Shown here piece by piece: positions 1,892 to 46,067 of a DNA stretch of 64,000 nucleotides. The notes under the pieces are model-generated. The model did no database searches. It was not told the origin of the DNA and was given only the letters and a program-made list of their open reading frames with translations. The stretch's first letter is position 1, and each line of letters starts with the position of its first letter. The stretch spans positions 26,225-90,224 of the forward strand of contig JAWKPW010000001.1 in the NCBI GenBank assembly GCA_041390465.1. Reading direction: 5' to 3'. The translations under genes and the position numbers were made by a program. This DNA is from Desulfobacterales bacterium (GTDB taxonomy: Bacteria; Desulfobacterota; Desulfobacteria; Desulfobacterales; Desulfococcaceae).

Positions 1892-1898
1892 CGTTTTC

Positions 1899-3601: not shown

Positions 3602-3662
3602 ATCCCTTCTCCTTCCTCATACTCCCCTGCAGTTTTTCCGGTTCAGATTCGATACCATCCAG

Positions 3663-5210: not shown

Positions 5211-5323
5211 TTTTTTATGTTTGCCGATCAAAGTGCCGGAGTGAAACTGACCTCCGGACTGTTCATCAGTCATTCGTCAATGCACCGGACTGAAGCCTGT
5301 GCCATTTTTTCTCTTTCCGATAT

Positions 5324-7586: not shown

Positions 7587-7596
7587 TTTTCTCCTT

Positions 7597-17600: not shown

Positions 17601-19065
17601 CCATGTCACGGTGAAATTTTGGGTGGAAGACACCGGGATCGGAATTCCTGAAGACCGCAGAAATCTGCTGTTTCAGTCCTTTTCACAGACCGATGCCTCT
17701 GTTTCCCGAAAATACGGGGGCACAGGGCTGGGACTGGCCATTTCAAAACAACTGGCTGAACTTATGGGCGGCCGGGTCGGTGCGGAAAGTGAGGAAGGCA
17801 TGGGATCAGCCTTCTGGTTTACCGCAGTTTTTGAAAAAAGTGCATCCAAAAACGGTGTCCTGCCGCCGATGCAGTCCGGGTTGGAAGAAAAAATCTGCGA
17901 TAGGGACAAAAGCAGCGTCCTGCCCGCCGATCAGACAAAACCCATCCGCATTCTTGTGGCCGAAGACAATATTCCCAATCAGAAAGTGATACTGGCAGTT
18001 CTGAAAAAATTCGGTCTTGGGGCTGATATTGCCGGCAATGGCAGGGAAGCGGTGGATGCCCTCCGGAACAAAGCCTATGATCTGGTTTTTATGGATATAC
18101 AGATGCCGGAGATGGATGGCATCGAAGCTGCCCGGCTGATCCGTGATCCGGGTTCCGGGGTTCTGAATCCGGATATTCCCATTGTGGCCATGACTGCAAC
18201 TGCCACAAAAGCGGATCGGCAGAAATGTTTTGACGCGGGAATGAATGACTATATTTCAAAACCGATTGATATGGACAAACTGCTGTCCGTAATCACCACG
18301 CAGTTGTCAGTGAGCAGCTGTCCGTTGCCGCCAGACAATAATTCCTTGAAAACAGAGAACTCTTTGCTGACAGCAGAAATTTTCAACTGTCAGAATTTTC
18401 TGAAACGCATGGGCGGCGATGAGCTTCTGCTGAAGGAAATGATTGCAGAGATTCCCGCACATTTTTCCGAGGTGATCGCAGAACTGAAAAATGCCGCAGA
18501 CAGAGGGGATACAGAGAAAATACGGCATCTGGCACATTTTCTCAGGGGAATCAGCGCCAATGTTTCCGCGGAGCGGATAAGGGATATTGCCTGTCAGATG
18601 GAAATTGCAGGGGAAAAAGGGGAAACCGGCATGGTGCGGTCCCTGACAGACAGGCTGGAACAGGAAGCCGATCGTTTCCGGTCGGAGATCGCGGCCATGT
18701 TTCCGGGAATCTTTCAGACCGTTGAGGAACCGAAAGCAGAGGAATCGGAAAGAATGCCGGAAGAGCCAAAGTCTCTGCCGCGGGAAGTGATCCGGATGCT
18801 GGAAGCGGATTTTCTCCCGAAATGGGAGAAATACACAGCGGCATTTTTCATTGAGGAAACAGAGAATCTTGCAGGCGAACTCAGGCGCATCGGAACCGAA
18901 TGGCAACTGGGTTTTCTGAACCGCTACAGTGAAAAAATGCTCAGGGCGGTGCAGCAGTACAATTTCAGCGAATGGGAAAAACTTGTGGCACAGTTTCCGG
19001 AAATCATGGACAGAATCAGGAAAATAGCGGAACAGGCAAAGCAGAACGGGCTTCCGGAAGCTTAA
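14671..19065 (+). CDS. Hybrid sensor histidine kinase: signal peptide, two periplasmic solute-binding (SBP_bac_3-like) domains, TM, PAS domains, HisKA-HATPase, REC, Hpt, plus conserved C-terminal domain of unknown function
   Basis: 1464 aa. H-box '[14 protein letters not shown]', G-boxes '[10 protein letters not shown]', receiver '[14 protein letters not shown]', Hpt 'HFLRGISANVSAE'. N-terminal signal peptide 'MKTALKIVLLSAMLSLPLSLYA'. Confidence 0.9.
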   Translation: MKTALKIVLLSAMLSLPLSLYAENSGENPQGKSKDTLVISMSRFSPPLTFLNAEGNPAGLFVDIWKLWAEKTGREIEFLSSSFSESLENLKKGSADIHSGLAITPEREQWMAFSQPFYENLSCLFFPVKHGQILTVGELGGKKVGVVKNSSQEEYLRKHYPDIECVLFNSTQDAILSARDGKVRAVAYSCITASADIMKLGLSGEFEYGRDILYTTGVHAGVAKENKDLLALIDKGFDAISNSELHEIEKRWIPDPEKRHYRPDAKIIRLTAKEEAWLKSHRTVRVGLAPDFPPLRIHTKEGIKGFTMDYLELISQRGGIQFQYVPVELAETDAKLQSREIDMFHSFAVPKRLEYALFTKPFTEFKILIITRSDAPFMDGISALRGRNVAVLKGIGIYNEMVSPYPDIERIEMDRMEDLFKAVSESGVYATLSAPLFAGYLMQNYPNLKIGGVADHANVPFLYAVRGDWPELVSIVNKVLASVTREEQDAIFQKWCRVQVEYRANWSEILKWIYTVTIFFVLVLGISLYWNRKLAKEISERRRTEESLRHSEERFRAIFEYAAIGIALVDADAELVMANSAMECFTGYTGEELRRAGIAAATHPDDWTPDIQLFTELREGKHSHYSIEKRYVRKDGQILWGRLTVSGIRDAAGNLTHAIGMVEDITERRQTEELLREKERLLSDIINFLPDATFVIDTQGKVLAWNRAMEVMSGKNAEEMLGRGNYEYALPFYGERRAALIDLALASSPNIEKTYAQMQRSGETIIAEGCCPNLPAGIRWLFGHARVLRNLKGELVGAIESLRDITDSKTAETELKKAKEAAESATRAKSEFLANMSHEIRTPMNAVVNMTRLLLDTDLNQEQREYAETAMASSEILLSLINDILDFSKIEAGKLELENRDFRLRDIVEPLAKMMKQKTEEKGLCLTYGIEPDVPSWVKGDPVRVRQILLNFLNNAVKFTDRGGITVSISLENQTDTHVTVKFWVEDTGIGIPEDRRNLLFQSFSQTDASVSRKYGGTGLGLAISKQLAELMGGRVGAESEEGMGSAFWFTAVFEKSASKNGVLPPMQSGLEEKICDRDKSSVLPADQTKPIRILVAEDNIPNQKVILAVLKKFGLGADIAGNGREAVDALRNKAYDLVFMDIQMPEMDGIEAARLIRDPGSGVLNPDIPIVAMTATATKADRQKCFDAGMNDYISKPIDMDKLLSVITTQLSVSSCPLPPDNNSLKTENSLLTAEIFNCQNFLKRMGGDELLLKEMIAEIPAHFSEVIAELKNAADRGDTEKIRHLAHFLRGISANVSAERIRDIACQMEIAGEKGETGMVRSLTDRLEQEADRFRSEIAAMFPGIFQTVEEPKAEESERMPEEPKSLPREVIRMLEADFLPKWEKYTAAFFIEETENLAGELRRIGTEWQLGFLNRYSEKMLRAVQQYNFSEWEKLVAQFPEIMDRIRKIAEQAKQNGLPEA

Positions 19066-19119: not shown

Positions 19120-22100
19120 ATGGAAATCTCCGTAAAAAATTATACGTTGTCAAAAAAACTTTATGAAAGTTCAAACTCACTGGTTTTCAGAGCCTTCCGG
19201 AATCAGGACGGAAAACCCGTCATTCTGAAAATGCTCAGGGAAGCCCGTCCCTCTCCCGAACGGATTGCATGGTTCAGGCGTGAATATGAAATAAACCGGA
19301 AGATGCGACTTTCGGGCATTCCTGATATTTATGAACTTAAAAACGAAGATAACCGCTGGATGATGGTAATGGAAGATTTTGGCGGAGATTCACTGCATGT
19401 TTTAAAGATTGCCGGAAACACGGATTTGCAGAATTTTCTTGCACTGGCCGTAAAAATTGCGGAAATTGTCGGCCAGATTCATCAACTGCATATCATTCAC
19501 AAAGACATCTGCCCGGCCAATATTGTGCTGAACCCTGCAGGCGGACAGGTCAAAATCATTGATTTCGGAATTTCCACAGTATTATCCCGTGAAAATCAGA
19601 CCTTCTGCAGCCCCGGCATTCTGCAGGGAAATCTGAATTATATTTCCCCGGAGCAGACCGGCCGCATGAACCGGGCAATGGATTATCGCACGGATTTTTA
19701 TTCGCTTGGCATAAGTTTTTATGAACTTCTCACAGGCCGCCTGCCTTTTCAGAGTGATGATCCCCTTGAACTGATTCACTGCCACCTTGCCAGACACGCG
19801 ACTGCTCCGTCTCTGCTTCTTTCATCAATGCCGGTCTTTCCCTTCCGCGAGGAACTGCGCCCTGTGCTTGACGCGGTTTCTTCCATCATTATGAAACTGA
19901 TGGCAAAGAACGCGCAGGATCGTTATCAGTCCGCCTGCGGCCTGATAACAGATTTGGAAAAATGCCTTTCCTTTGTTTCAGAACCCTTGTCCGCCATTGG
20001 TTTCACCCCCGGTTCCCAGGATGTTTCCGACCGATTCATGATTCCCCAGAAACTTTATGGCCGCAGCAGGGAAATTTCCCGTTTGCTTCAGTTGTTTGAT
20101 CAGACCTCCGCGGGAGAAAAGCATCTGATTCTGGTAAGCGGAGAACCGGGAGTTGGAAAATCTGCTTTGATTCAGGAGCTTTACAGACCAATCACTGAAA
20201 AACGGGCATATTTCCTTTCAGGCAAATTTGATCAGTATCAGCGCAATATCCCCTTTGTTGCATTCCGTCAGGCATTCCGCCAGTTCTGTGACCATCTGCT
20301 GACACAACGTTCGGAAGATCTTGCGGTCTGGAAAAAGAAAATTCTGGATGCAGTTGGTGACAGCGGGCAGGTTCTCATTGATGTGATTCCCCATCTTGAA
20401 TTTGTGATTGGAAAGCAGCCGGAGATTCCCCAAGTCGGTTTTCAGGAGTCCCAAAACCGCTTTTATCTGTATTTTCAGTATTTCATCAGAGCCATCTGCC
20501 AGCCGGAACATCCGCTGGTGATTTTTGCTGATGATTTGCAGTGGGCAGATGCTGCCTCGCTCCATCTCATCAAAGTGCTGATGTCAGATGCCCAAAGCAC
20601 AAATCTTATGATTATCGGTGCATTTCGTGACAATGAAGTTTTCCCAGGCCATCCTCTGATGATCATGCTGCAGGAAATGCAGGATTCCGCAATCACGGTT
20701 CACCGGATTCATGTTGAAAACCTCAGACCTGAAAATGTGCTGGAAATGACAGGGGACTGTCTGCACTCTGACGCGGAAAAAGTCAGACCTCTGGCGGATC
20801 TGATCTGTGAAAAAACTCTGGGCAATGCCTTTTTCCTGATTCAGTTTTTAAGCGGTCTTTATGATGACGGGCTTGTGAGATTTTCCCGCGAAGCAGGCTG
20901 GATCTGGGATGTGGAAAAGATCCGTTCAAGAGAAATCACAGACAATGCTGTTTCCTTTATGAGCGGAAAGATCCGGAAACTTCCCCCTGAGATTCAAAAC
21001 CTGCTGAAGCTGGCTTCCTGTCTGGGAAACCGTTTTGAGCTGAATGTCCTGTCCCATATCAGGGAAGGTTCACGGGAGGAGACAAATCTGCATATTTTTG
21101 AATGCGTCCGGGAAGGACTTCTGATTCCTCTGGATGATGCCTGCAAACTGATGCTGACCGCAGGAGAAAAAACCGGGGATGGCGGCTGGCTGCGCTTTGT
21201 TCATGATCGGGTCCAGCAGGCTGCATACATGCTGATGGATGAAAATCTGCGCAGGACAGCGCATTTGAAAATCGGCAGAGTGATGCTGAAAAACACGGAT
21301 CCGGCCCAACTGGAAAACCGGATTTTTGACATTGTCGGGCATCTGAATTTTCTTGCAGAAGACAGCTTCTCTGACAGCAGCCGGGAGGAAAAGACGGACA
21401 TCGCCCGGCTGAATCTGACAGCAGGCAAAAAAGCGATGGCCTCAGCAGCCTATGCTGCGGCACTCGGTTATCTGAAAACAGGGATCGGCCTGCTGGGGGA
21501 GAGCCGCTGGCAAACGCATTTTGATCTCGCGATGGAACTTTGCAGAGAAGCCGCGCAGGCTGCCTATCTTGCCGGAGATTATCCGGAAATGGAACAGCAT
21601 CTTGCAGATGCCGGGCATTATGCAAAGACAGTTGGGGACAAACTTCATGCCATTGAAATCCGCATTCTTGCGCTGCAGGCACAAAACAGACTGGAAGCGG
21701 CCATCCAAACCGGACTGTCCGGATTAAAGGAACTGGGATGTGAATTTCCGGAAAATCCGACACCTGAAAATATGGAAGAAACACTGCGTCATACCATGCA
21801 GCAGATATCCCAAAAGGGATTTGAAGGCATTGTCTCTCTTCCGGAAATGACGGACCCGCAGCAGTATGCTGTCAGTCAGCTTCTGGGAACCCTGACCACA
21901 CTGGCCATTATGGTGGCACACAGTCTGCTGCCCCTGATTGTGTGCAGACAGATCCGCATCTCCCTGACATACGGAACAAATCCGGCATCATCTTTCGGAT
22001 ATGTGACCTGCGGCATCATTCTGTGCAATATTGCCAATGACATTGCCTCCGGATACCGCATGGGCCGTGCGGGCCTGGCATTGGCACAGCGCGGGGAGAG

Positions 22101-25100
22101 CGGAACATATCTGCAAAAAACGAAATTTTATTTTCATACGTTTATCCAGCACTGGAAAGAGCATCTGGAGGAAACTGTCCGGCCCCTGCATGAAAACTTT
22201 CTCTCTGCAATGGAAGCCGGACTGCTGGATTTTGCCGCATATTCTGCCGCAAATTATGTTCTCAGCCTGTTTTTCACTGGCAGAGAGCTGACAGAGGTTG
22301 AAAAAAAGACAGAGAAATACGCGCAGGCAATCCAAAACATCCGCCAGATGAATGTCTATTACTGGGTCAAAGCCATGCACCAGGCAGTGCAGAATCTGCT
22401 GGGACAGTCCCCATGCCCCTGGCGGCTGGCAGGCAGAGCCTATGAGGAAGAAAAAATAAGCGCATTTCTGTCAGCCGGAGATGTTTCTCTGCAAACCCAG
22501 AGCAATATTTACAGATGCATGCTGTGCTATCTGTTTGGGCGGTATCAGCAGACTGTGGCGTATGCACGGGAAAGTGTTCCCAATGCCCAGCCCATCTTCG
22601 GACATCCGCTGCTTCCCCTGCTTTACTGGTATGAATCTCTGGGAAATCTTGCTCTCTTTCCAGAATGTTCCCCCGCAGAGCAGGTGCGGATGCTTGAGAC
22701 CGTGAACAGCAATCAGCAGAAGATGAAGCTTTGGGCTGATCATGCCCCCATGAATCATCTGCACAAATACTGTCTGGTGGAGGCTGAACTCTGCCGTGTC
22801 ACCGGAAAGCATGGAGATGCAAGGGAATATTATGACAAAGCCATAAAACTTGCCAAAGAAAATGAATATCTTCAGGAATATGCTCTGGCAAATGAGCTGG
22901 CCGGGAAATTTTGCATTGAAAAAGGACTTCCCAAAATCGCCAAAATCTATCTCAGAGAAGCCCATTATGCCTACCGGCTTTGGGGTGCAACTGCCAAAGT
23001 CAGTCATTTTGAAAAATCTTACAGATCTTTTTTAAAACCAAAAGAATCAGAGGAAAAGATTTCCTCCCTCACTTCCGTCACCGGAACAGACAGTGCGCAG
23101 ATTTCCTCTTTGCTGGATATTGCCAGCATTGTCAAGGCATCGCAGGCAATTTCAGAAAAAATCATCCTCAATGATTTGCTGAGGAAACTCATGTCTGTCA
23201 TGATGGAAAATGCCGGAGCGCAAAAAGGTTTTTTGCTGCTGGAACGGGGCGGTCATCTGCATATTGAAGCCGAGTCCGGCAGAGAAGAGCAGCCCCTGAA
23301 AGGACTGACTCCTGAAGAGGCCGGAGAGCATCTGAGCCAGGCCATTGTGAATTTTGCATTTCGCACGCATTCGAGCGTGGTATTGAATGATGCAGCCAAT
23401 GAAGGGGAGTATATGACAGACTGGCATGTAAGCAGATACCGTCCCAAATCTGTTTTGTGCATGCCCATTGTCGGACGCGGCCACTGTCTTGGGGTTTTGT
23501 ATCTGGAGAACAGTCTGAGCACACACGGTTTTCCAAAAGAACGGCTGGAAATTCTGGGCATTCTGGCAGTGCAGGCCGCCATCTCCATTGAAAACGCACG
23601 CCTGTATGCCAGTCTGGAACAGCGCGTAACAGAACGCACAGTCCAATTGGAAAAAGCCAATCAAAAACTGGAAGAAAGCCGGGAAATGTTTTCCACTTTC
23701 ATGGATTATCTGCCTGCGCCTGCCTTTGTCAAGGATGATGAATCAAGAACCCTGTATGTGAACCGGTATTTCAAAGATTTGTTCGGGAATGAATGGGAAG
23801 GAAAATCTGTGATGGAACTTTTTCCCGAACCGGTTGCCAAAGCCATGATGGAAGATGATCGCAGGGCACTGGCACAGGGCATGGTTCAGAATATTGAAAC
23901 CGTTCCGGACAGATATGGGGGAAACAGGATTTTTCAGACCCTGAAATTCCGTCTGGGAAATTCCAGCAGGATCGGGGGGTTCGGCATTGATGTCACAGAG
24001 CTGAAGCAGGCAAAGGAAGCCGCGGAAATCGCAAATCGCGCCAAATCCGAATTCCTGGCCAATATGAGCCATGAAATCCGCACCCCCATGAATGCGCTTG
24101 TGAACATGACCCGTCTGCTGCTGGATACAGAACTGGATGGGGAACAGCGGGATTATGCAGAAACCGCAGTCATGTCATCGGAAATCCTGCTTTCCCTGAT
24201 CAATGACATTCTGGATTTTTCCAAAATTGAGGCAGGGAAACTGGATCTGGAGAAAAGTGATTTCAGCCTCAGGGATATCCTTGAATCTGCTGTCAGGATT
24301 CTCAGGCCCAAAGCAGAGGAAAAAGGGCTGCGCGTGACACACCGTCTTGATCCCAATCTTCCTTCCCATGTTTCAGGCGATCCGGTGCGGGTGCGCCAGA
24401 TTCTGCTGAATTTTCTGAACAATGCAGTCAAATTCACAAAAAAGGGAGACATAGCTGTCCGTGTGCTTGCAGAGGATCAGACAGAGACACACTGCACCGT
24501 GAGATTTGAAGTGGCAGACACAGGTGCGGGGATTCCCGAAAAGCTCAGAAACCGCATGTTTCAGCCCTTTTCCCAGGCTGACAGCTCAACCACGCGGAAA
24601 TACGGGGGCACAGGACTTGGGCTGGCCATTTCCAGACAGATCGCGGAACTTATGGGAGGCACAGTCAGTTTTGAAAGTGAGGAGGGCCGGGGATCAACGT
24701 TCCGGTTCACCGCAAGAATGCGGAAGGCGGAAAGAAAAATGTCTGATGATGAATGCAGAACACCCAGGGAAGCAGACCGCTTCTCCATCCACGGTGCGCA
24801 GTCAGACACTCATCCGCCATTGCACATTCTTGTGGCCGAAGACAATGTCTTCAACCAGAAGGTGGTATCGGCAATTCTGAAAAAATTCGATCTTGCGGCC
24901 GACATTGCCGAAAATGGAAGGGAAACAGTGGATGCGCTTCGCAGCAGGCCCTATGATCTGGTTTTCATGGATATACAGATGCCGGAAATGGACGGACTCA
25001 CGGCTGCCCGAACCATCCGCGATCCGGATTCCGGGGTTCTCAATCCCTGTATTCCCATCATTGCCATGACTGCAAATGCAACAAAGGAAGACAGACGGAA

Positions 25101-25932
25101 ATGCCTTGAAGCCGGAATGAATGACTATATTCCAAAACCCATTGATCCGGAAAAACTGATTTCCGTTATCCGGGAACAGTTGTCAGTGAAAACAGAGCCG
25201 TGCCTGTCAAAAAGAGATTCCCTGAAAACAGAGACCTGCTCCCTGAGCGCTGAAATTTTCAACCGCGCGGATTTCCTGAGGAGACTGGGCGGAGACGAGG
25301 GGATTATGCGGAGAATTTTGTCAGGCATACCGGAAAATCTGGCAGGAGGGATCAGGAAACTGAGATCCGCGGCAGAAGAAAATGATGCGGAAAAAATACA
25401 GTTTTATGCACACAGCATCAGGGGGATCAGTGCCAATATCTCGGCAGAAAGAATAAGGGATGCTGCCTGTGAAATTGAAAATGCAGGGAAAAAGGGTGAA
25501 ACAGACACGGTGCGCGCGCTGACGGACCGGCTGGAACGGGAAGCGGATGCGTTCCGGTCAGTGATTTCAGCCATGTTTCCGGAACTTTTTCAGGCCATTG
25601 AAAAATCTGAACATGCGCAGGAATCTGAAATGATCTCGGAACAGACAGGGCTCCGCATACCGGAACTGATCCGGATGCTGGAAAATAATCTGCTTCCGGA
25701 ATGGGAAAAATGCAAGGATATATTTTTTATTGATGAAACCGAAAAATTTGCTGCGCAGTTGAAGTGCATCGGAACAGAATATCAGCTCGGCTTTCTGATC
25801 CGCTACAGCCGGGAGCTGCATGCGGCTGTGCAGAATTACAATTTCACCCAATGGGAAAAACGTATGTCTGAATTTCCGCAGATTGTCAGCAGAATCAGGA
25901 AACTGGCAGAAAACGGGCCCATCTCCGGCTGA
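19120..25932 (+). CDS. Giant multi-domain signalling protein: Ser/Thr protein kinase, AAA/NACHT-like ATPase, TPR-like region, GAF, PAS, HisKA-HATPase, REC, Hpt, plus the same C-terminal unknown domain
   Basis: 2270 aa. STK motifs '[11 protein letters not shown]', 'DFGIS'. P-loop '[10 protein letters not shown]'. GAF and PAS in the middle. HK/REC/Hpt module about 80% identical in protein to the C-terminus of the upstream kinase. Confidence 0.9.
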
Positions 25933-37522: not shown

Positions 37523-37628
37523 ATCCGGAGAACAGCGCACAGTCCGCAGCAGAAATCAGGCGGTGAGGGCAATCAGGAAAACATGGGGAGACTGTTTGGG
37601 ATATCACGGTTCACTGACAGAGGAACAC

Positions 37629-39398
37629 ATGTTTGCTTCCGTTCTTTTCAGAAGAATTTTTCCAGCCTTTGCGCTGATCAGTGTGGGCCTGCATCTGCTG
37701 CTGATTTGGCATTGCACATGGCTGACAGAACAGTATGTTCGGGAAGCAGGGCATGCTGCCCCCATCCGGGATATGAGGGTGATCGAACAACTGCTCTGTG
37801 CGCGAAGCGCTGAAAAAATTTCCGGAGAAATCCTGTCTCCGGAACTCCGTCACCTGCTGTCAGAAAAAAAAATTGGGAACACAGGGTATGTCTTCCTTTT
37901 TGACAGGGACCTGCATCTGATCTTCCATCCGGACCCGGATGTGAAAAAAATCCCGCTCCATGACACTGCCCGGATACAGTCTCGTCCGGAGCAGATGAAA
38001 AAGGAGGACTCCGCAATCCGCTGTTTTTCTGACAGGGGGAAAACGGTTTGGACAAAATATGTAAAAGAACGCGGATGGTATGCCGCCATCATCATGGATG
38101 CCGATGAGGCGGAACACAGCGGCAGAGAATTCCGAAACCGCATTCTCTTCTCCTTTTTTGCAGTACAAATTCTGTTTCTGCTGCTGCTGGCTTTCCTGCT
38201 GCACGCTTTTTTCAGGCCCCTGCAATATCTTCAGGATATGGCAGCGGAATTTATCCGTACCGGCAGTGTTTCCCAAAAGCCTTTTGTGGCAGACAGCGGG
38301 GAAATCGGCTTTCTGTCCTGGACTCTGCATCGCATGACAGCGCAGCTTGGGGAAAACATGCGGAAAATCAAATCCCTTGAGCGTGAACATGCAAATCTGA
38401 TCCGCGCCAGTGACCGGGCCAGAGCGCGCGCCTATGATCTGGACAAAGCCAGGGAAAAACTGGAATGGGAAGTGCAGACGTACCGGGAAGCCGAGGTTTC
38501 CCTCCGGCAGAGTGAGGAACGGTACCGATCCATGCTGGAAAATATAGAAGAATGCTTTTATGAAGCGGATCTGCTGGGCAATCTGGTTTTTTTCAATGAC
38601 GCGCTCTGCCGCATGCTGGGATACAGCAAGGAAGAACTCCTGGCCATGAATTACCGGGATTTTATGGATGAAGCCACTGCGGAAAAGGCGGAAAAAACCT
38701 TCACAAGGGCATTTGAGACCGGGATTCCGGCCAAAGGATTTGAATGGACCCTTATCTGCAAGGACGGCTCCCCCTGCTATGTGGAACTCTCTGTTTTCCT
38801 TATAAAGGATGAACAAGATGAAATTCTTGGGTTTCGGGGCGTTGCCCGCAATATCAGTGATCTGCTCTACCTGATTTACCATGATTCTCTCACCGGTCTT
38901 TACAACCGCAAGGCTTTTTTTCAGCGTCTGAAGGAAACACTGGCCTATGCCCGCCGGGACAATAATGAGAAAAACATTTTTTACATGGATCTGGACAGAT
39001 TCAAGCAGGTCAATGATGCTTACGGGCATGATGTGGGCGATGAAATTCTCAAAGAAGTGGCAGCACGCCTGAAAAGCACATTGCGGGAAACCGATCATAT
39101 CTGCCGGCTGGGCGGAGATGAATTTACCGTGATTCTGAACAATGCAGGCAGTGCCAACCCCGCGGAAGCAGCACGGCGGATTCTTGAAAGTCTTTCCCAT
39201 CCTTACATTGTAAAGGAACATCTGATTGATTTCATCACGCCCAGTATCGGCATCAGTTCCTATCCCAGGGATGCCGCAGATGTGGAAACTCTGGTAAAAT
39301 GTGCCGACATTGCCATGTATGCCTCCAAAAAGCACAGGGGCTGTTTCACCTTCTACGACAAATCCCTGGAAGAGAGGGATGAACCGCAAAAGGAATAG
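37629..39398 (+). CDS. Sensor diguanylate cyclase (periplasmic sensor, HAMP, PAS, GGDEF)
   Basis: Two TM helices flank a ~150-aa periplasmic region. PAS ('EERYRSMLENIEECFYEADL'). GGDEF with intact 'RLGGDEFTVIL'. RBS AGAGGAA. Confidence 0.85.
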   Translation: MFASVLFRRIFPAFALISVGLHLLLIWHCTWLTEQYVREAGHAAPIRDMRVIEQLLCARSAEKISGEILSPELRHLLSEKKIGNTGYVFLFDRDLHLIFHPDPDVKKIPLHDTARIQSRPEQMKKEDSAIRCFSDRGKTVWTKYVKERGWYAAIIMDADEAEHSGREFRNRILFSFFAVQILFLLLLAFLLHAFFRPLQYLQDMAAEFIRTGSVSQKPFVADSGEIGFLSWTLHRMTAQLGENMRKIKSLEREHANLIRASDRARARAYDLDKAREKLEWEVQTYREAEVSLRQSEERYRSMLENIEECFYEADLLGNLVFFNDALCRMLGYSKEELLAMNYRDFMDEATAEKAEKTFTRAFETGIPAKGFEWTLICKDGSPCYVELSVFLIKDEQDEILGFRGVARNISDLLYLIYHDSLTGLYNRKAFFQRLKETLAYARRDNNEKNIFYMDLDRFKQVNDAYGHDVGDEILKEVAARLKSTLRETDHICRLGGDEFTVILNNAGSANPAEAARRILESLSHPYIVKEHLIDFITPSIGISSYPRDAADVETLVKCADIAMYASKKHRGCFTFYDKSLEERDEPQKE

Positions 39399-39652
39399 CG
39401 AACAATATTTATGATGTTATTGACTTTTTCTGATTTCTGTGGAATGAATAAACAGACGTATTGTCATACTGCCGGCACAAAGGGCTCCTTTTTGTTTTTT
39501 TGTGCATAATCATCTTGGGTGATTTCCGGAAAGGAACATTCCCCGGATTTGACAGCTTTTCCATATGTTGTCAAATCTTTCAGGTGACTGAACCGGGACA
39601 TTCATTTTCAGAACGCACCTGAACAACAGCAAATTTTTTGGGAGATTCAAAA

Positions 39653-40153
39653 ATGGCGGAATTTGAGCATCCTCATCATGAAGACATCAGCGAAGAAATG
39701 TGGCACAAAATTGACAGCATTATTGCGGAACATGCGGGACTGCCCGGTTCCATCATCGCGGTGCTGCGGAAAAGCCAGAATGTTGTCGGCTATCTGCCGA
39801 CAGAACTGATGGATTATATCAGTCTGGGCATGAATCTGCCCCGCAGCGATGTCTTCGGGGTGGCATCCTTTTATGCCCTTTTTTCCATGAAACCCAAGGG
39901 CAGGAACACGGTCAGGGTTTGCACGGGGACAGCCTGCTATGTGAAAGGCATCAAGGAGGTAATCAGCCGCATCAGCAACAAATATGACATGGCTGAGGGA
40001 TGCACCACAGCGGATCGCTGTTTTTCTCTGGAATCGGTCAGATGTCTGGGTGCGTGCGGTCTGGCTCCGGTAATGGTCATCGGAGAGGATGTTTACGGCG
40101 CTGTCAAACCGGATACCGTACTGGACATCCTGGCCCGGTATGAAACCCCATAA
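39653..40153 (+). CDS. NuoE/HndA-like thioredoxin-fold [2Fe-2S] protein (24-kDa subunit family)
   Basis: 166 aa. Four Cys in 'CTGTACYVKG...CLGACGLAPV' spacing typical of NuoE/HydC. Confidence 0.8.
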   Translation: MAEFEHPHHEDISEEMWHKIDSIIAEHAGLPGSIIAVLRKSQNVVGYLPTELMDYISLGMNLPRSDVFGVASFYALFSMKPKGRNTVRVCTGTACYVKGIKEVISRISNKYDMAEGCTTADRCFSLESVRCLGACGLAPVMVIGEDVYGAVKPDTVLDILARYETP

Positions 40154-40174
40154 TCTGAAAACTGGCAGTATCTT

Positions 40175-40528
40175 ATGAAACTATCTGAGGTTAGGGATAT
40201 TTTGCGTGCGGAAGTCCTGACAGGGGAGGAACTCATGGACAGATCCGTTTTTGGCGGAGGCGGCGCGGATCTGATGGAAGATATTCTGGCAACCGTGGCA
40301 AAAGGGGCCGCCCTGCTGACCGGTGTGACCACAGAACAGGTCATCCGCACCGCCAGAATTGCCGAAGTCGGAGCGGTCATATTTGTCAGGGGAAAAAAAC
40401 CCGGGCAGAAAGTCATTGATATGGCAAAATCCTATAACCTGCCGGTAATGCTGACAGAGTATTCCATGTTCGTGGCAAGCGGACGCCTGTACATGAACGG
40501 TCTCAGGGGACTGGACGGTTCATGGTAG
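40175..40528 (+). CDS. DRTGG domain protein
   Basis: 117 aa, paralogous to the next gene. DRTGG-type fold is commonly encoded in [FeFe]-hydrogenase regulatory gene clusters. Confidence 0.65.
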   Translation: MKLSEVRDILRAEVLTGEELMDRSVFGGGGADLMEDILATVAKGAALLTGVTTEQVIRTARIAEVGAVIFVRGKKPGQKVIDMAKSYNLPVMLTEYSMFVASGRLYMNGLRGLDGSW

Positions 40529-40609
40529 TTCAGGCCCCGGCTGCGGAACCTTGCGTTTTTTTTGCTTCCCGGCATACCTGAATCCGGAATTCCTTACATG
40601 GCATAAACG

Positions 40610-40963
40610 ATGAAATTATATGAAATACAGCAGGCTGTGGATGCCTGTGTTCTGAGCGGGGAAGAACAGTTGGACAGGGACATCCGCACTGCGGGTGCCA
40701 GTGATCTGATGAGTGACATTCTGGCCGGAGTTGCAGAAGGATGTGTGTTCCTTACCGGGCTTGCCACTGTGCAGACCATCCGCACAGCAGTGGTATCGGG
40801 CGTGAGCGCAGTGGTTTTTGTGCGCAACAAAATCCCCCCGCAGGAAGTCATTGACATGGCAAAAGCGGAAGGCATTCCGCTTTTATCCAGTCCCTGTTCC
40901 ATGTTTGTCTCCTGCGGCAGGCTTCATGCTTTGGGACTGACCGGATTGAACGGAGCCAGATGA
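40610..40963 (+). CDS. DRTGG domain protein (paralog)
   Basis: 117 aa, ~45% identical to the 40175 product. Confidence 0.65.
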   Translation: MKLYEIQQAVDACVLSGEEQLDRDIRTAGASDLMSDILAGVAEGCVFLTGLATVQTIRTAVVSGVSAVVFVRNKIPPQEVIDMAKAEGIPLLSSPCSMFVSCGRLHALGLTGLNGAR

Positions 40964-40964
40964 T

Positions 40965-41405
40965 ATGGGTGAGGCAATCCTGCACAAAGTTTTTCCCATC
41001 AACAAAAAAGATTTTGTCCACGCGGGCGAGGCCTCCATCCATGCCAAAAATCTGCTCAAAGCCCTGAATATGGATCCCGGACTGATCCGCCGCTCTGCCA
41101 TCTGCGGTTATGAGGGCGAAATGAATGTGGTCATGCACGGCGGAGAGGGGGTTCTGGCCATCCGCATTGAGAAAGATCGGATTGTTTTGGAACTTTCAGA
41201 CAATGGGCCGGGCATTCCGGATATTGAACTTGCCCTGCAGGAAGGATATTCCACAGCATCCGATGAATTCCGGGAAATGGGCTTTGGCGCGGGCATGGGA
41301 CTGCCGAACATGAAAAAAAATGCGGATGAATTTGAACTTTCCTCCCGTGTGGGAGAAGGAACACAGGTGCGCATGGCATTTTTCCTGAAAAGCAAAGGAG
41401 GATAA
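40965..41405 (+). CDS. Histidine-kinase-like ATPase (anti-sigma-factor/RsbW-type HATPase_c_2)
   Basis: 146 aa. 'LELSDNGPGIPD...GFGAGMGLPN' Bergerat-fold G-boxes without a HisKA domain. Confidence 0.7.
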   Translation: MGEAILHKVFPINKKDFVHAGEASIHAKNLLKALNMDPGLIRRSAICGYEGEMNVVMHGGEGVLAIRIEKDRIVLELSDNGPGIPDIELALQEGYSTASDEFREMGFGAGMGLPNMKKNADEFELSSRVGEGTQVRMAFFLKSKGG

Positions 41406-41407
41406 AG

Positions 41408-42724
41408 GTGGACAATCTCACGGCTCCCCGGTATGTGCGTTTTGATGACAATCTCTGCACAGCCTGCTGTGACTGTGTGCGGATATGTCCCACCCATGCG
41501 CTGCGCATACGGAAAGGCCGGCCGGTTCTCATGCCTGATCAGTGCATTGGGTGCGGGGAATGCATCCGAATCTGTTCCGCGGGCGCTGTGTCCGCATCCA
41601 CCTGTGAACTGAAACCCTTTGCTGATGATCAGATTTCTGTTGCCATGGTTTCTCCGGTTCTCTATTCCCAGTTTCCCGGAGTTCCGCCTGAAACTGTGCT
41701 GCAGGGCATCCGGCGGCTGGGATTTACGCATACGGTGGATATGTCCTATTTTCTGGAAATGTTCCAGTTTGCCACTGAAGACTTCATCCGGCGCAACCGC
41801 AAAGAGGAAAAGGCCCCCTGGCCGCTCATTTCTCCGATCTGTCCGGTGGTGGTGCGGCTGATTGCCTATAAATATCCAAGCCTTCTTTCCCATGTCCTTC
41901 CGGTTTCCAGACCCGTTACCCTCATGGCCGGAGAAATCAACCGTCTGCTTACGCAGCGGTATGAAACAGCCCGGCATCCCTTTCATCTCTATTATATTGT
42001 TCCCTGTCCCACAAAAATGGAACCCAGCCGGGTGTCTTTTCTCAAAAACCGTTCCTATGCGGTCAGGGCTCTGGGCTTCAATGATATTTTCGGGGAACTG
42101 ACCCGGGAAATCCAGAAAGGAGGACAGCCCCCCCTTCCCCCCGATCTTTTTGACAGTTACGGAGCCACCGTAAGCAGTCTGATCTGGGGAATCTCCGGAG
42201 GGGAGATCGCGGATCTCCAGATTGATCACACCCTGGCTGTTTCCGGTCTGAAGGAAACCATGTCCTATCTGGAAAAAATTGAAATGGGAATGTTCCGGGA
42301 CATGGAATACATTGAATTCAGAACCTGCCGCGAGGGATGCGTGGGCGGCATTCTGACAGCCATTGACCGGTATCTGGCCAAAAGGGATGTGCAGAAAACC
42401 ATTCTTCAGAACGGCATTGAAAGACGGGTTTCCCGCAGTGAGTTTCTGCGTTTTTATCAGGAAGGCTGTTTTGTCAAAAAGGCCAGTCCAGCGGCCATGC
42501 GACAGATTTTCGGAATTCACCGGGAACCCCTGTCTTTGGAAAAAATGGCGGAAATCTACACCATCATGAGCCATATCAGGGGAAAAAACTGTGCTGCCTG
42601 CGGCGCACCGGACTGCCGGACCTTTGCCGAGGATGTGGTCAGGGGAAAGGCTTCTTTGGAAGACTGTCTGGAACTGCGCGCGCGCGGGGAAAAATTTTCC
42701 CCTCCTTCTGCTGACGCACTCTGA
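41408..42724 (+). CDS. Putative sensory [FeFe]-hydrogenase-like protein (HydS-like): 2x[4Fe-4S] ferredoxin domain, divergent H-cluster domain, C-terminal Cx2Cx4Cx16C motif
   Basis: GTG start with RBS AAAGGAGGA. N-terminal 'CTACCDCVRICP...CIGCGECIRIC'. H-domain motifs degenerate relative to catalytic HydA: L1 'SPICPVV' (single Cys instead of TSCCP), L2 'VPCPTKME', L3 'EFRTCREGCVGG'. C-terminus 'CAACGAPDCRTFAEDVVRGKASLEDC' = Cx2Cx4Cx16C. Confidence 0.7.
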   Translation: MDNLTAPRYVRFDDNLCTACCDCVRICPTHALRIRKGRPVLMPDQCIGCGECIRICSAGAVSASTCELKPFADDQISVAMVSPVLYSQFPGVPPETVLQGIRRLGFTHTVDMSYFLEMFQFATEDFIRRNRKEEKAPWPLISPICPVVVRLIAYKYPSLLSHVLPVSRPVTLMAGEINRLLTQRYETARHPFHLYYIVPCPTKMEPSRVSFLKNRSYAVRALGFNDIFGELTREIQKGGQPPLPPDLFDSYGATVSSLIWGISGGEIADLQIDHTLAVSGLKETMSYLEKIEMGMFRDMEYIEFRTCREGCVGGILTAIDRYLAKRDVQKTILQNGIERRVSRSEFLRFYQEGCFVKKASPAAMRQIFGIHREPLSLEKMAEIYTIMSHIRGKNCAACGAPDCRTFAEDVVRGKASLEDCLELRARGEKFSPPSADAL

Positions 42725-42787
42725 AAAAACGGCAGATATGAAACGCATTCTCACCTGCGGAAACTCTTCAGGAGAACAGAATCAGCA

Positions 42788-43207
42788 ATGAGCCCTTCTT
42801 TAAATCACAGTTATCTTTGCAAACGAATCATTGTGGAGATGGAACGGTCAGGAAAATGGGAAGCATGGCCGGAGCTTACTCTGGATATTGAGGGCGGGCT
42901 TGTGCCGGATATAGCGATCTATGAAAGCGGTGTGCTGAAACCGGATTTCAGACAGGACAGAATCCGGTGTGAAACTCTTCCTTTGGCAGTTGTGGAAATT
43001 GTGTCCCCCGGTCAGTCCATACATGATCTGATGATCAAAGCGGACAAATTTATCCGCGCGGGAATTCCCGCAGTCTGGACAGTGGAACCTTACGGCGCTG
43101 TCATCTATGTTTCCGAAAAAGAAGAAAGAAGGATCGTTGTGGCAGATGTGGTGAAAACCGGGGATATTGAACTGGATTTTTCAAAAATCTTCCCCCGGAG
43201 GCAATGA
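42788..43207 (+). CDS. Uma2-family (DUF820) putative endonuclease
   Basis: 139 aa. 'PDIAIYE...VVEIVSPGQ...' PD-(D/E)xK-like Uma2 pattern. Alternative start at 42836. Confidence 0.6.
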   Translation: MSPSLNHSYLCKRIIVEMERSGKWEAWPELTLDIEGGLVPDIAIYESGVLKPDFRQDRIRCETLPLAVVEIVSPGQSIHDLMIKADKFIRAGIPAVWTVEPYGAVIYVSEKEERRIVVADVVKTGDIELDFSKIFPRRQ

Positions 43208-43230
43208 CCGGAAGCAGTCATCTGATGCGT

Positions 43231-45228
43231 TCAGATTCGCAAGTCCCGCACCTGTGAACGAAACTGCCGCAGCATCTCCCGGTTTCCTTCTTCTCCGTAG
43301 CGCATCCGGATATACAGCCCAGTAATATCCGAAATTTCCTTTTTCAGATCCGGCAGTGCTGCCATTGCAGTCTTCGCATAATCAGCCGGCCCCATTTCCG
43401 GCCTCCGGGGAACACCTTTTCTTTCCAGTTTTCTGCAAAATTCTGCATACACATCCCGTACAGGGTCTCTTTTGGGAGCGGCTTTGTGCCGCATACGCAG
43501 GAAAAACAGAAAAAACACCACAGCAATAAGTCCCGTAATCAGCAGAGCGGTTTTGAGAATCCACTTCCCCCCCTCCACCCGGATGCCCAGTTTCGCGAGC
43601 AGACCGGTCTGATCCTGAAGGGAGTAGGCCATAATCCACAGATTCCAGTAAGCATTCACCATATCCCAGCCAAATCTCATATTGGTCAGAAGACTTCCCA
43701 TCCACCCGGTTTTGGGCATGGAAAAGAAACGGAAAAGATCATTGGCGGAAAGAGCATCCTCCAGGCGTCCTTCCACTCTCTCCGGAGCGACAACGGCTGT
43801 GGGATCTGTGCGTGTCCATCCTTTTCCGGAAAACCAGACCTCTGCCCAGGCATGGGCATGGGCCTGACGGACAATCAGATACCCCCCATAGGGATTGATT
43901 TCACCGCCCTGATATCCGGCCACCACACGCGCGGGTATGCCTGCGGCACGCATGAGAAAGACAAAAGCCGAGGCATAATGTTCACAGTAGCCTCTGCGGG
44001 TTTCGAAAAGAAAATCATCCACCGGCTGCGTGCCCAGCAGAGGCGGTTCCAGGGTGTAAACAAATCCCTTTTCCCGGAAATGCCGAAGCGCTGTTTTCAC
44101 GATTTCTTCCGGTCCCATGCCGGATGCTGCCCAGGTTTGGGCCATTGCTGCGGATCGGGGATTGCTTCCCGGAGGCAGTTCCGCAACCCGTCTTTCCCAT
44201 TTTTCCATAGGGCCCGTATCATAGGAAGTATAGGAAGTCATTTGGTAAAGTTTCCGCTCCCCCACAGGACGGTGCGCCATGAGGGTGAAATCACTGAGCA
44301 TATATCCTCCTGCCGGTTTTGTGCCCGGCATATCCAGAGCAAAGAGCCAGCGGTCATTGTGGGGTTCCAGCGTGAGGGTGTAATTCACAGGATTTTCCGC
44401 TCGGAGCAGGGAACTGCTCGCAGGAAGTCTGATTCCTCTTGTCCATTCCCGGCCATCAAAGAGCGTGAAAACAATGCCCCGCCAGTAAAGCTGGTCCTGG
44501 GGAGGAACCGGGCCCTCAAATGTGACCCGGAACGCAATGGCATCATTTTGTGCCAGAGAGGAAAGTCTTCCGGGGGACATTTTGTCTGAAAAACCGGATC
44601 TGCCGGTGCGCTGGGCAATCCCCAGAATATTCCCCTGTATGCGGGGAAAGAGGAAGAAAAGGATGAGCATCACCGGAATGGCCTGCAGCATGATCACAGA
44701 AGCCAGACGGAATTTCTGTTTAACGGAACCCGCAGGATGCTGGAGATGAATCAGCACCGCAGTGGTAAGCAGAACTGATCCGAACATATAAAGGGTCATC
44801 CCCAGTTCATCGCTGTAGAAAAGGTTGGTGATGACCATGAAATAGGCCAGAAACAGGCTGATCATGTAATCCCGGTAACAGCGGGACTCCAGAGGCTTGA
44901 GTCCTGCCATGACCGAAAGAAGGGCCACATACGCGTCCGTGTGCAGCGCTCCTCCGAAGGAAAGCAGGGCTCCGCCGAATCCGGCAATGGCCAGAAAAGC
45001 GGTGAAATAGGTGTTCAGGACAGGCCGCGCTTTTCCGGATGCCCTCCAGATGAAGCCCCAGAGTCCGAGACACCAGAAAATGACCCACAGATGCAGGTTG
45101 TTCACATGGGGAATGGTTGCTGCGAACAGAGCCAGAAGAATGGGACGAAGCTGTCTGCCATAGATTGGGGATTTTTTCTTTTCTGCCAGATTTGTGTTCA
45201 GTATCTGCTCCTTTTCCGGCATATGCAA
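43231..45228 (-). CDS. Transglutaminase-like membrane protein (TgpA-type: N-terminal multi-TM, transglutaminase core, DUF4129-like tail)
   Basis: 665 aa. Six N-terminal TM helices. Core 'RRGYCEHYASAFVFLMRAAGIPARVVAGY...' with Cys-His-Asp triad residues. Confidence 0.8.
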   Translation of the reverse strand: MHMPEKEQILNTNLAEKKKSPIYGRQLRPILLALFAATIPHVNNLHLWVIFWCLGLWGFIWRASGKARPVLNTYFTAFLAIAGFGGALLSFGGALHTDAYVALLSVMAGLKPLESRCYRDYMISLFLAYFMVITNLFYSDELGMTLYMFGSVLLTTAVLIHLQHPAGSVKQKFRLASVIMLQAIPVMLILFFLFPRIQGNILGIAQRTGRSGFSDKMSPGRLSSLAQNDAIAFRVTFEGPVPPQDQLYWRGIVFTLFDGREWTRGIRLPASSSLLRAENPVNYTLTLEPHNDRWLFALDMPGTKPAGGYMLSDFTLMAHRPVGERKLYQMTSYTSYDTGPMEKWERRVAELPPGSNPRSAAMAQTWAASGMGPEEIVKTALRHFREKGFVYTLEPPLLGTQPVDDFLFETRRGYCEHYASAFVFLMRAAGIPARVVAGYQGGEINPYGGYLIVRQAHAHAWAEVWFSGKGWTRTDPTAVVAPERVEGRLEDALSANDLFRFFSMPKTGWMGSLLTNMRFGWDMVNAYWNLWIMAYSLQDQTGLLAKLGIRVEGGKWILKTALLITGLIAVVFFLFFLRMRHKAAPKRDPVRDVYAEFCRKLERKGVPRRPEMGPADYAKTAMAALPDLKKEISDITGLYIRMRYGEEGNREMLRQFRSQVRDLRI

Positions 45229-45411: not shown

Positions 45412-45501
45412 TTTTTTGTGACCTTTGTGCCCTCTCTGTGTCTCGGCGGTAAAACAAACCTGACAGAAAGCATGGTTTCAATGGGGAATCGGTATTATAT
45501 C
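45412..45501. repeat. Dispersed intergenic repeat: module C (TGTGACCTTTGTGCCCTCT) plus module B (AAGCATGGTTTCAA-GGGAATCGGTATTAT)
   Basis: Near-identical C+B arrangement recurs at 59822-59907. Module C occurs in reverse at 57835-57866 and 46130-46168/46320-46375. Confidence 0.7.
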
Positions 45502-46067
45502 CCCAATTCCTCTGCGATTTCAGACATGGCTGCCAGACTCAGGTTTACAAATTCATTCAGGGGAAGGCCGATTTTCTCGCATTCCATGATCCGCTCCCGG
45601 CTTACGGCTCTGGCAAAATGCGGGGTTTTCATCCGCTTGGTAACGGATTTGGTCTGAACACTTGCAATTTTTTTGTCCGGATATACGAGGAGCCGTGGCC
45701 ACAATCAGGCCGAGATGCTTCCTGCGCAGGTAAGCGCATGCCCGTGTAAGTGTGGTGCTGTCCTTCCAGCCCCAGCCCTTCGGCATTGTGCTTGCGAATC
45801 GCGTTGAGGATTTCCGGGCAGATGCCTTTTTCCTCCAGCAGTTTTGCGCCCACCTCGCCGTGCTGTGCGGAATCCTCGCCCGTAATTTCATAATCAATGT
45901 CATGGAGCAGACCCGAAAGTCCCCATATGTCCGGATTTTCTCCAAAATGCCCGGCCAGTTTTCGCATAATGGCCTCGGAAGCCAGACATGTGCCACCAGT
46001 CTTTCGTTTTTCAGATGTTCTTCAGCAGCTTTCAGAGATCCTCCCGGTTGATTCGATGTGCGCTCAT
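45495..46067 (-). pseudogene. HD-domain (HDIG/YqeK-like) phosphohydrolase gene disrupted by at least three frameshifts
   Basis: The reading frame must switch at least three times to follow 'MSAHRINREDL | KAAEEHLKNERLVAHV | LASEAIMRKLAGHFGENPDIWGLSGLLHDIDYEITG...HNAEGLGLEG | ...VTKRMKTPHFARAVSRERIMECEKIGLPLNEF'. The 'LLHDIDY' HD motif is intact. Confidence 0.6.

Follow-up and report, generated by a model that had tools for sequence, protein, structure and literature searches.

The closest described relatives of the system reported here are the group D (M2e) [FeFe]-hydrogenases, which carry two N-terminal [4Fe-4S] motifs, an H-domain without the cysteine at position C299 (CpI numbering is used for pocket positions) and a C-terminal Cx2Cx4Cx16C motif, and which have no PAS domain; the replacement of M353 by a hydroxyl donor (Ser/Thr) is well conserved among them (PMC8163306). 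Their genes often accompany an operon for a group A (bifurcating) hydrogenase, and a putative sensory hydrogenase of group D is already known together with a nearby gene for a histidine-kinase-like ATPase (PMC8163306). TamHydS of Thermoanaerobacter mathranii, the only characterised group D member, binds an extra [4Fe-4S] cluster through its Cx2Cx4Cx16C motif (PMC8163306, PMC13104023) and interconverts H+ and H2 reversibly at low rates (PMC8163306); the identification of its interaction partners has been called the critical missing step (PMC13104023). The Bfu family comprises NuoEF-based electron-bifurcating enzymes, including HydABC and NfnABC/Stn (PMC9304861, PMC7483475). Here we describe a five-gene cluster at positions 39653-42724 of a 64-kb stretch of contig JAWKPW010000001.1 from a Desulfobacterales bacterium. 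This whole stretch, which reaches 39 kb upstream and 21 kb downstream of the cluster, is called the window below, and the last gene of the cluster encodes a HydS-like homolog of the group D proteins.

The cluster consists of five + strand open reading frames (ORFs) separated by 21, 81, 1 and 2 nt (Table 1). Domains were assigned by Pfam and NCBIfam, and motifs were read from the direct translation. The core of the cluster is formed by a DRTGG-domain protein, a small GHKL-type ATPase and a group D-type HydS, which are joined here to a BfuC-type NuoE protein and a second DRTGG protein. We regard the cluster as the conserved sensory core of a regulatory cassette of NuoEF-based (Bfu-type) bifurcating enzymes, and we give this reading, with the signalling role included, a probability of roughly 0.55. 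The identity of the cluster and the account of its evolution given below are held with high confidence.

When the HydS-like protein was aligned with TamHydS, the two were colinear from residue 10 to 421, with 28% identity and an E value of 6e-61. The TamHydS sequence had been rebuilt from the coding sequence in the supplement of PMC13104023 and stitched across frames because of machine-reading errors, and the result was 99% identical to a database protein. Compared with this, the matches to solved group A structures were weak (E ~1e-17), and the NCBIfam group A and B1 models scored 62-64 bits vs cut-offs of 406-450. HMMER retrieved 199 cluster representatives at E <= 1e-30, and the best 150 of these were almost all 410-460 aa long and aligned over near-full length. 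The AlphaFold2 model of the protein (pLDDT 87.4, pTM 0.88) had only [FeFe]-hydrogenases as its top structural matches in the PDB (TM ~0.6). In a neighbour-joining tree with 100 bootstraps, for which M2e-type and group A3 HydA sequences served as references, the protein fell in a Desulfobacterales-type clade of its own (bootstrap 99-100), and the M2e-type sequences, including the TamHydS-like ones, were split from group A3 HydA with a bootstrap of 100. The tree contains no group B or C references and settles no deep branching order within the M2e radiation.

The protein has all the group D traits listed above except for Ser/Thr at M353, which is the one M2e feature that it lacks, and no Pfam match to PAS, Fe_hyd_SSU, Fer2 or NADH-G_4Fe-4S_3 was found in it. 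Taken together, the comparisons support the last gene as a putative HydS-type (M2e/group D-like) homolog rather than a group A enzyme. Assignment to the catalytic group A or Hnd-type hydrogenases was rejected on the L1 motif SPICP in place of TSCCP, the missing Fe_hyd_SSU, Fer2 and NADH-G domains and the low NCBIfam scores, and group C was ruled out because the PAS domain is absent. A Narf-like alignment of the cysteines, raised as an alternative in a preliminary description of the locus made from the sequence alone, found no support either, as the motifs match those of TamHydS one to one, the C-terminal domain included. None of the 70 group D enzymes in the published list comes from Desulfobacterota.

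Conservation within the HydS family was counted in an alignment of 121 members. The four cysteines that correspond to the H-cluster ligands (C145, C200, C307 and C311) were kept in 120-121 of the 121 proteins: the C300-equivalent cysteine and both L3 cysteines in all of them, and the L2 cysteine in 120. The C-terminal Cx2Cx4Cx16C motif was invariant (121/121), and the lysine equivalent to K358 was found in 114. The proton-transfer position C299 is occupied by Val or Ile in 118 members and the S298 position by Pro in 120, Arg is present at the S323 position in 120 and at the M497 position in all 121, and the M353 position holds Asn in 108 and Val in 12, the latter being specific to the sub-clade of the window. 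Arg at the M497 position was also seen in many other M2e-type representatives. In comparison with TamHydS, the window protein has Ile for Ala at C299, Val for Ser at M353, Arg for Leu at M497, Arg for Ser at S323 and Val for Ser at S232. As judged from these alignments, the Desulfobacterales HydS clade has a predicted pocket signature of its own. All eight N-terminal [4Fe-4S] cysteines are kept in the window protein, and the second of the two motifs is invariant in the family. At the second cysteine of the first motif (C20 of the window protein), Cys is present in only 64 of the 121 members, with His in 25 and Tyr in 14, so that the distal cluster is probably altered in many HydS relatives.

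The first gene of the cluster encodes a NuoE protein with the Cx4C...Cx3C ligands. Among solved structures it comes closest to bifurcating-enzyme subunits of the HydC/BfuC type (E 2e-40 to 3e-37) and next to NfnC (8e-34). Its identity to the Desulfonema limicola ortholog is 79%, and no other gene of the cluster is as well conserved. A TTG at 39638 is an alternative start, and the orthologs were called from ATG. The two DRTGG proteins are 52% identical to each other, and the second ('b') scores just under the DRTGG cut-off (25.0 vs 25.2 bits); the ortholog of the first ('a') sits between NuoE and NuoF in ten related loci. The N, G1 (DNGPGIPD) and G2 (GFGAGMGL) boxes of the ATPase are intact, and neither Pfam nor NCBIfam detected a HisKA/DHp (His-phosphotransfer) domain. 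Its best NCBIfam model is SpoIIAB (TIGR01925, 48.9 bits against a cut-off of 135), and SpoIIAB proteins were also the only solved relatives found, at a weak 26 bits.

The genomic context of the family was surveyed with one genome per species. The best 80 of the 542 relatives found were examined within +/-10 kb; nearly all of these were labelled Desulfobacterales or one of its families, and three metagenome-assembled genomes were labelled otherwise. ORFs were called in 82 loci and compared with the genes of the window and of D. limicola as references. HydS was immediately preceded by the ATPase gene in 66 of 67 informative loci, a DRTGG gene stood upstream of it in 64 of 67, a PHP gene followed it in 51 of 57 loci, and NuoF was encoded within 10 kb in 21 of the 31 loci with long flanks. 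The DRTGG-ATPase-HydS triad is thus the invariant core of the cassette. Its parts are fused in other lineages, as HATPase+HydS (P0148), as N-terminal DRTGG+HydS (P0136, P0192) and as HydS+DRTGG (P0124, P0140, P0171, P0216, P0247), and 24 of the 120 closest homologs reach at least 520 aa, the length of the DRTGG-fused forms, and would have room for a DRTGG domain at the C-terminus. Since such fusions occur, there is strong evidence that DRTGG, ATPase and HydS act together. No PAS domain was found in the ten long HydS relatives scanned.

In Thermoanaerobacter and Caldicellulosiruptor bescii the order is DRTGG-ATPase-HydS-DRTGG-PHP-NuoE-ATPase(~183 aa)-HydD(121-129 aa)-NuoF-HydA. The usual Desulfobacterales regulatory operon runs through DRTGG, the 146-aa ATPase, HydS, DRTGG (sometimes fused to HydS), PHP, a 185-aa ATPase and a 122-aa [2Fe-2S] protein, and an enzyme operon nearby, often divergent, encodes NuoE, sometimes DRTGG, NuoF and a third protein of 635-696 aa that combines an RnfB-like Fe-S region at the N-terminus with a flavoprotein part of the GltD/NfnB kind. 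As the accessory genes agree between the two groups in kind and order, the cassette is common to Firmicutes and Desulfobacterales, whereas the accompanying enzyme differs. HydA with an H-domain was absent from all 82 Desulfobacterales loci, and the sole long HydA matches there were the HydS-like proteins themselves (22-23% identity). The co-location with a group A hydrogenase operon described for group D was thus seen neither at these loci nor in the window. Within the Bfu family, this enzyme of the Desulfobacterales is similar in sequence to the Nfn/Stn branch, but with a third subunit far shorter than StnC.

Several further features recurred at these loci. Proteins of 356-382 aa, encoded beside NuoF or downstream of the cassette (L057 5087-6157, L064 4987-6066, L059 4979-6124, L004 15341-16474 and others), are similar to HydA only over its NuoG-like N-terminal 210 residues, with 40-45% identity, and look like BfuA-type subunits without the H-domain. 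Genes of the PNP_UDP_1, amidohydrolase, adenine-deaminase and IF-2B (PF01008) families lie between or after the enzyme and HydS operons in 19-28 loci (for example, L005 3349-8845 and 13795-14907), which we read as nucleoside/adenine salvage. A 249-aa protein of D. magnum with a cyclic-nucleotide (cNMP)-binding domain (L004 14462-15211) also matches the 122-aa thioredoxin-like [2Fe-2S] protein; similar proteins of ~250 aa follow the cassette in about 19 loci, and this type of protein could be a redox-responsive regulator. Four genomes carry tandem duplicates of HydS-like genes (L072 2420-5115, L073 9977-12645, L074 9977-12644 and L085 8572-11284), each 43-48% identical to the window HydS.

The order DRTGG-small GHKL ATPase-HydS is present in the window, and the downstream part of the cassette, DRTGG-PHP-ATPase(~185 aa)-HydD-like, is missing, as are the adjacent NuoF (BfuB) and the catalytic or third subunit. 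Searches of the 64 kb with Pfam on large ORFs and with tblastn using reference proteins found no NuoF, HydA, PHP, HydD-like or GltD-like gene; with the third DRTGG as the tblastn query the sole hits were the DRTGG pair of the cluster, and with the 185-aa ATPase only the HATPase domain of a 2270-aa kinase. At the D. limicola locus, eleven genes lie in one direction in the order NuoE-DRTGG-DRTGG-ATPase-HydS-DRTGG-PHP-ATPase185-HydD-NuoF-(RnfB/GltD-like oxidoreductase), the first five of which have the order of the window and 63-79% identity to its genes. D. limicola is sister to the sub-clade of the window with a bootstrap of 97. This sub-clade comprises five species, with the loci L002/L007 (94% identity), L008 (89%), L009 (83%) and L010 (70%), all of which hold only the same five genes; the downstream DRTGG-PHP-ATPase-HydD genes are missing from L002, L008, L009 and L010 too. 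A convergent TgpA gene stands directly after HydS in L002/L007 and L010. The simplest reading of these arrangements is that the D. limicola order is ancestral and that the last six genes were lost or relocated in one event before the five species diverged.

All five genes are intact and are under purifying selection, with a ratio of nonsynonymous to synonymous substitution rates (dN/dS) of 0.03-0.18 at dS values from 0.3 to >1, up to 2. The ratio was 0.05-0.09 for NuoE and 0.06-0.09 for DRTGG 'a'. Upstream of the first gene lies a promoter-like element of ~30 nt, which hardly differs between five orthologous loci and can still be made out in D. limicola, and from which we infer a candidate promoter. 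Because all six loci have the element ahead of the first gene, it suggests that the five genes form a single transcription unit with its own promoter. A consensus scan of 39300-43400 scored no sigma-70 site, the promoter-like element included, and the terminator-like matches in the same region lay inside coding sequence and occurred at background rate. The operon leader of the window contains a stretch of ~110 bp that is missing from L002, L008 and L009 and that holds perfect inverted repeats (Table 1).

Much of the preliminary description was borne out by these results. The five co-directional, tightly spaced genes, their NuoE-like, DRTGG, histidine-kinase-like ATPase and hydrogenase-domain identities, the motif reading (SPICP, retained cysteine ligands, Cx2Cx4Cx16C), the HydS-type rather than group A assignment and the [FeFe]-hydrogenase fold for which it had proposed a structure prediction all agree with our analysis, as do the flanking GGDEF and Uma2 genes and, for the locus itself, the lack of NuoF or catalytic HydA nearby; DRTGG and ATPase genes, which it had named as HydS partners, are regular companions in the relatives. 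The lack of a PAS domain was correctly noted and is no anomaly, being normal for group D (PMC8163306). The statement that such genes are normally encoded beside HydABC holds for Firmicutes, whereas in Desulfobacterales their neighbours are NuoE-NuoF and an RnfB/GltD-like or NuoG-like protein and never HydA. The cluster is truncated rather than self-contained, as it corresponds to the 5' half of a longer conserved cassette.

The surroundings of the cluster differ among close relatives. The Uma2 gene lies in a segment of ~490 bp (window 42725-43230) that is missing from the 94%-identical relative, in which the convergent TgpA gene follows 19 bp after HydS, and Uma2 is a window-specific insertion. 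The HD-domain gene further downstream is split across three frames in comparison with the intact 190-aa ortholog in L002 (13386-13958) and is either a frameshifted pseudogene or the product of an assembly error. An ORF of 548 aa antisense to HydS was taken as a shadow ORF. Elsewhere, the window contains two adjoining genes for large multi-domain kinases and a type II secretion/type IV pilus-like gene set.

Table 1. Coordinates of the cluster, its motifs and other features of the 64-kb window
Feature	Position	Strand	Support
NuoE/BfuC (HydC)-type thioredoxin-like [2Fe-2S] protein, 166 aa	39653..40153	+	PF01257 2Fe-2S_thioredx, E 6e-45
DRTGG-domain protein 'a', 117 aa	40175..40528	+	PF07085, E 9e-9
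DRTGG-domain protein 'b', 117 aa	40610..40963	+	paralog of 'a'
GHKL-type ATPase, 146 aa	40965..41405	+	HATPase_c, E 7e-11; HATPase_c_2, E 9e-7
HydS-like group D (M2e)-type [FeFe]-hydrogenase homolog, 438 aa, GTG start	41408..42724	+	Fe_hyd_lg_C, E 3.4e-18
Two CxxCxxCxxxC(P/S) [4Fe-4S] motifs, N-terminal ferredoxin domain	41456..41578	+	two Fer4 matches, translation
First [4Fe-4S] motif, CTACCDCVRICP	41456-41491	+	translation
Second [4Fe-4S] motif, CIGCGECIRICS	41543-41578	+	translation
L1, SPICP: Ile at CpI C299 (proton-transfer), Cys145 at C300 ligand position	41831..41845	+	translation
L2, VPCPTK: Val at M353, Cys200 ligand, Lys203 at K358	41999..42016	+	translation
L3, EFRTCREGCVGG: Arg305 at M497; Cys307 and Cys311 at C499 and C503	42314..42349	+	translation
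C-terminal Cx2Cx4Cx16C (CAACGAPDC-x16-C)	42590..42667	+	PF04060 'FeS', E 6.8e-11, translation
Promoter-like element, TTGACT at 39420-39425 then TGTGGAATGAAT	39416..39449	+	alignment
Operon leader with ~110-bp stretch	39500-39620
Perfect inverted repeat GATTTGACA-N14-TGTCAAATC	39546-39577
Perfect inverted repeat TTCAGGTG-N29-CACCTGAA	39579-39623
Cache-PAS-GGDEF gene	37563-39398	+
Uma2 gene	42788-43207
ORF antisense to HydS, 548 aa	41108-42754	-
HD-domain gene, split	45500-46060	-
Kinase, 1464 aa, SBP_bac_3-PAS-HisKA-HATPase-REC-Hpt	14671-19065	+
Kinase, 2270 aa, Ser/Thr kinase-AAA_16-GAF-PAS-HisKA-HATPase-REC-Hpt	19120-25932	+
Type II secretion/type IV pilus-like set: T2SSF, T2SSE ATPase, AAA_22, secretin, PilM-like	668-10154	-

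How a sensory core of this kind might work can be proposed only tentatively, and the signalling mechanism that follows is possible rather than probable. HydS would bind an H-cluster through the four invariant cysteines and the Lys358 equivalent and, having no proton-relay cysteine, would turn over slowly in the manner of TamHydS. It could report H2 or the ferredoxin/NADH redox state, received via the two N-terminal clusters and possibly NuoE, and a conformational change in HydS may control a bound ATPase. The ATPase could act on the DRTGG proteins, either by phosphorylation or by nucleotide-dependent binding, and these would carry the signal to the target, which in complete cassettes would be the adjacent Bfu enzyme. 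The target in the window would be encoded elsewhere and would most likely be a NuoF-containing enzyme that still needs the NuoE of the cluster. The strong constraint on NuoE (dN/dS as given above) suggests that this protein still has a NuoF partner.

Several points weigh against a sensory core. The C-terminal cluster of TamHydS gives no response to H2 (PMC13104023). The Ser/Thr that replaces M353 in M2e enzymes is absent from the clade, which has Asn or Val there, and Arg is invariant at the S323 and M497 positions. The ATPase resembles SpoIIAB weakly, and no gene for a STAS partner, a sigma factor or a DNA-binding protein belongs to the cluster. Without PHP, ATPase185 and HydD, the pathway may also differ from that of a complete cassette.

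The possibility exists that the HydS-like protein is an iron-sulfur redox sensor without the [2Fe] subcluster, with only the [4Fe-4S] cubane in its H-domain, as in Narf/Nar1-type proteins, and that it reads the ferredoxin/NADH state and not H2; the Desulfobacterales would then be without HydEFG. We consider this a serious rival, though an unlikely one. The partner enzyme in Desulfobacterales is not a hydrogenase, the published group D list holds no Desulfobacterota, and the five pocket differences from TamHydS, among them the invariant Arg at S323 and M497 and the branched Val/Ile at C299, would fit a protein of this kind; against it, the bridging cysteine (C503 equivalent) is invariant, the CN-binding lysine (K358 equivalent) is retained in most members as counted above, Arg at the M497 position is shared with many other M2e-type representatives, and M497 is poorly conserved across groups C and D in any case (PMC8163306). 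It is also conceivable, if improbable, that HydS and NuoE make up a minimal slow catalytic hydrogenase, in which HydS passes electrons to or from the [2Fe-2S] NuoE protein while making or using H2, and which the ATPase and the DRTGG proteins merely modulate. The low rates of TamHydS (PMC8163306) and the position of NuoE as the most conserved and strongly constrained gene of the cluster agree with this, but the proton-transfer cysteine is missing across the clade, and most relatives encode NuoE together with NuoF in a separate divergent operon and not with HydS. HydA joins HydBC through its NuoG-like N-terminal domain; the HydS-like protein has no such docking domain, as neither Fer2 nor NADH-G was detected by Pfam.

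The preliminary description had also raised the possibility that the module signals to its neighbours, either through the Cache-PAS-GGDEF cyclase and hence cyclic di-GMP (c-di-GMP) or through the multi-domain kinases. The GGDEF gene shares the strand of the cluster and stands 240 bp upstream of it, a position that is kept in L002, L003, L007, L008 and L009. However, the synteny extends only to relatives of at least 83% identity, the gene does not adjoin the cluster in L010, D. limicola or any other of the 82 loci, and the conserved promoter-like element stands between it and the cluster. The kinases lie 15-25 kb away with unrelated genes between, and Uma2 is the window-specific insertion described above. 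We therefore rejected c-di-GMP or Uma2 coupling on the locus comparison; these neighbours are incidental, and signalling to the cyclase or the kinases is very improbable. We find it scarcely credible that the cluster is what a deletion left of an operon, without function and drifting to loss. Six of the eleven ancestral genes are gone and the HD-domain gene nearby is frameshifted, yet none of the five species has a disrupted copy of any of the five genes, no cluster ligand has been lost, the truncation is older than the divergence of the sub-clade, and the dN/dS values at the dS reached contradict decay, on which ground a decaying pseudogene cluster was rejected.

A wider reading, which we consider doubtful, is that a sensor of hydrogenase origin has lost its tie to hydrogenases in Desulfobacterales, so that the triad controls NuoEF-based NAD(P)H/ferredoxin oxidoreductases and serves in the window as a free-standing H2/redox sensor. 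The organism would then possibly be without a catalytic [FeFe]-hydrogenase and would keep maturases solely for the sensor, or the sensor would have no [2Fe] subcluster. If this is true, the five genes are a natural minimal system for group D 'sensory' signalling. The 'sensory' label of group D rests on indirect grounds, and the small GHKL ATPase and the DRTGG proteins, found beside HydS nearly everywhere and sometimes fused to it, are concrete partner candidates. Since the cassette is not hydrogenase-specific, standing beside non-hydrogenase NuoEF enzymes in an order of sulfate reducers and alone under selection here, the question shifts from the sensing of hydrogenase expression to a hydrogenase-like sensor that informs redox-balancing enzymes. 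In the literature searched, the Desulfobacterales clade with its own pocket signature, the HydS cassette beside non-hydrogenase NuoEF enzymes and the five-gene minimal form appear to be undescribed; the search returned nothing relevant on DRTGG with hydrogenase, on HydEFG or HydG in Desulfobacterales or Desulfobacteraceae, or on group D in Desulfobacter.

TamHydS is one of the closest known systems. It shares with the window protein the 2x[4Fe-4S] domain, the H-domain, the Cx2Cx4Cx16C motif and the lack of both a PAS domain and the proton-transfer cysteine, and its operon has the flanking genes for DRTGG and small GHKL ATPase proteins. The two differ at the five pocket positions named above, the window protein falls in a Desulfobacterales clade that is separate and well supported, and the Thermoanaerobacter cassette runs on after HydS to HydA, whereas that of the window ends at HydS. 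TmHydS and other sensory enzymes of group C (M2f) have N-terminal clusters, an H-domain without the proton-transfer cysteine and a C-terminal four-cysteine cluster as well (PMC8163306), but, when compared by features rather than by sequence, they have a C-terminal PAS domain that the window protein lacks. Like the SpoIIAB/RsbW anti-sigma serine kinases of partner switching, the ATPase is a single GHKL domain (~146 aa) that has the N, G1 and G2 boxes but lacks a His-phosphotransfer domain; it differs from them in a score far under the family cut-off, and its conserved companions are DRTGG and HydS, whereas neither a STAS antagonist nor a sigma factor is encoded in the cluster or next to it.

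The first gene of the window links the cluster to the Bfu family, as it encodes a NuoE of the BfuC/HydC type and the cassettes of relatives adjoin NuoE-NuoF and a third redox subunit. The window itself is without BfuB (NuoF) and BfuA, and the third subunit in Desulfobacterales, either RnfB/GltD-like with 635-696 aa or NuoG-like with 356-382 aa, is neither HydA nor the 1,070-1,240 aa StnC. The NADP-reducing hydrogenase HndABCD likewise combines a NuoE-like gene with an Fe-hydrogenase-domain gene, and HndABCD is likely the label that pathway pipelines would give to genes such as these, although the window protein has neither TSCCP nor the NuoG-like N-terminus nor the small-subunit domain, and no HndC (NuoF) is encoded in the window. 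'hndABCD' has been reported in all the Desulfobacterales genomes of one study (PMC11920609). We suspect that the published 'Hnd' calls rest on the HydS cassette. Automated 'Hnd hydrogenase' calls in Desulfobacterales may thus reflect cassette genes and could overstate H2 metabolism in this order.

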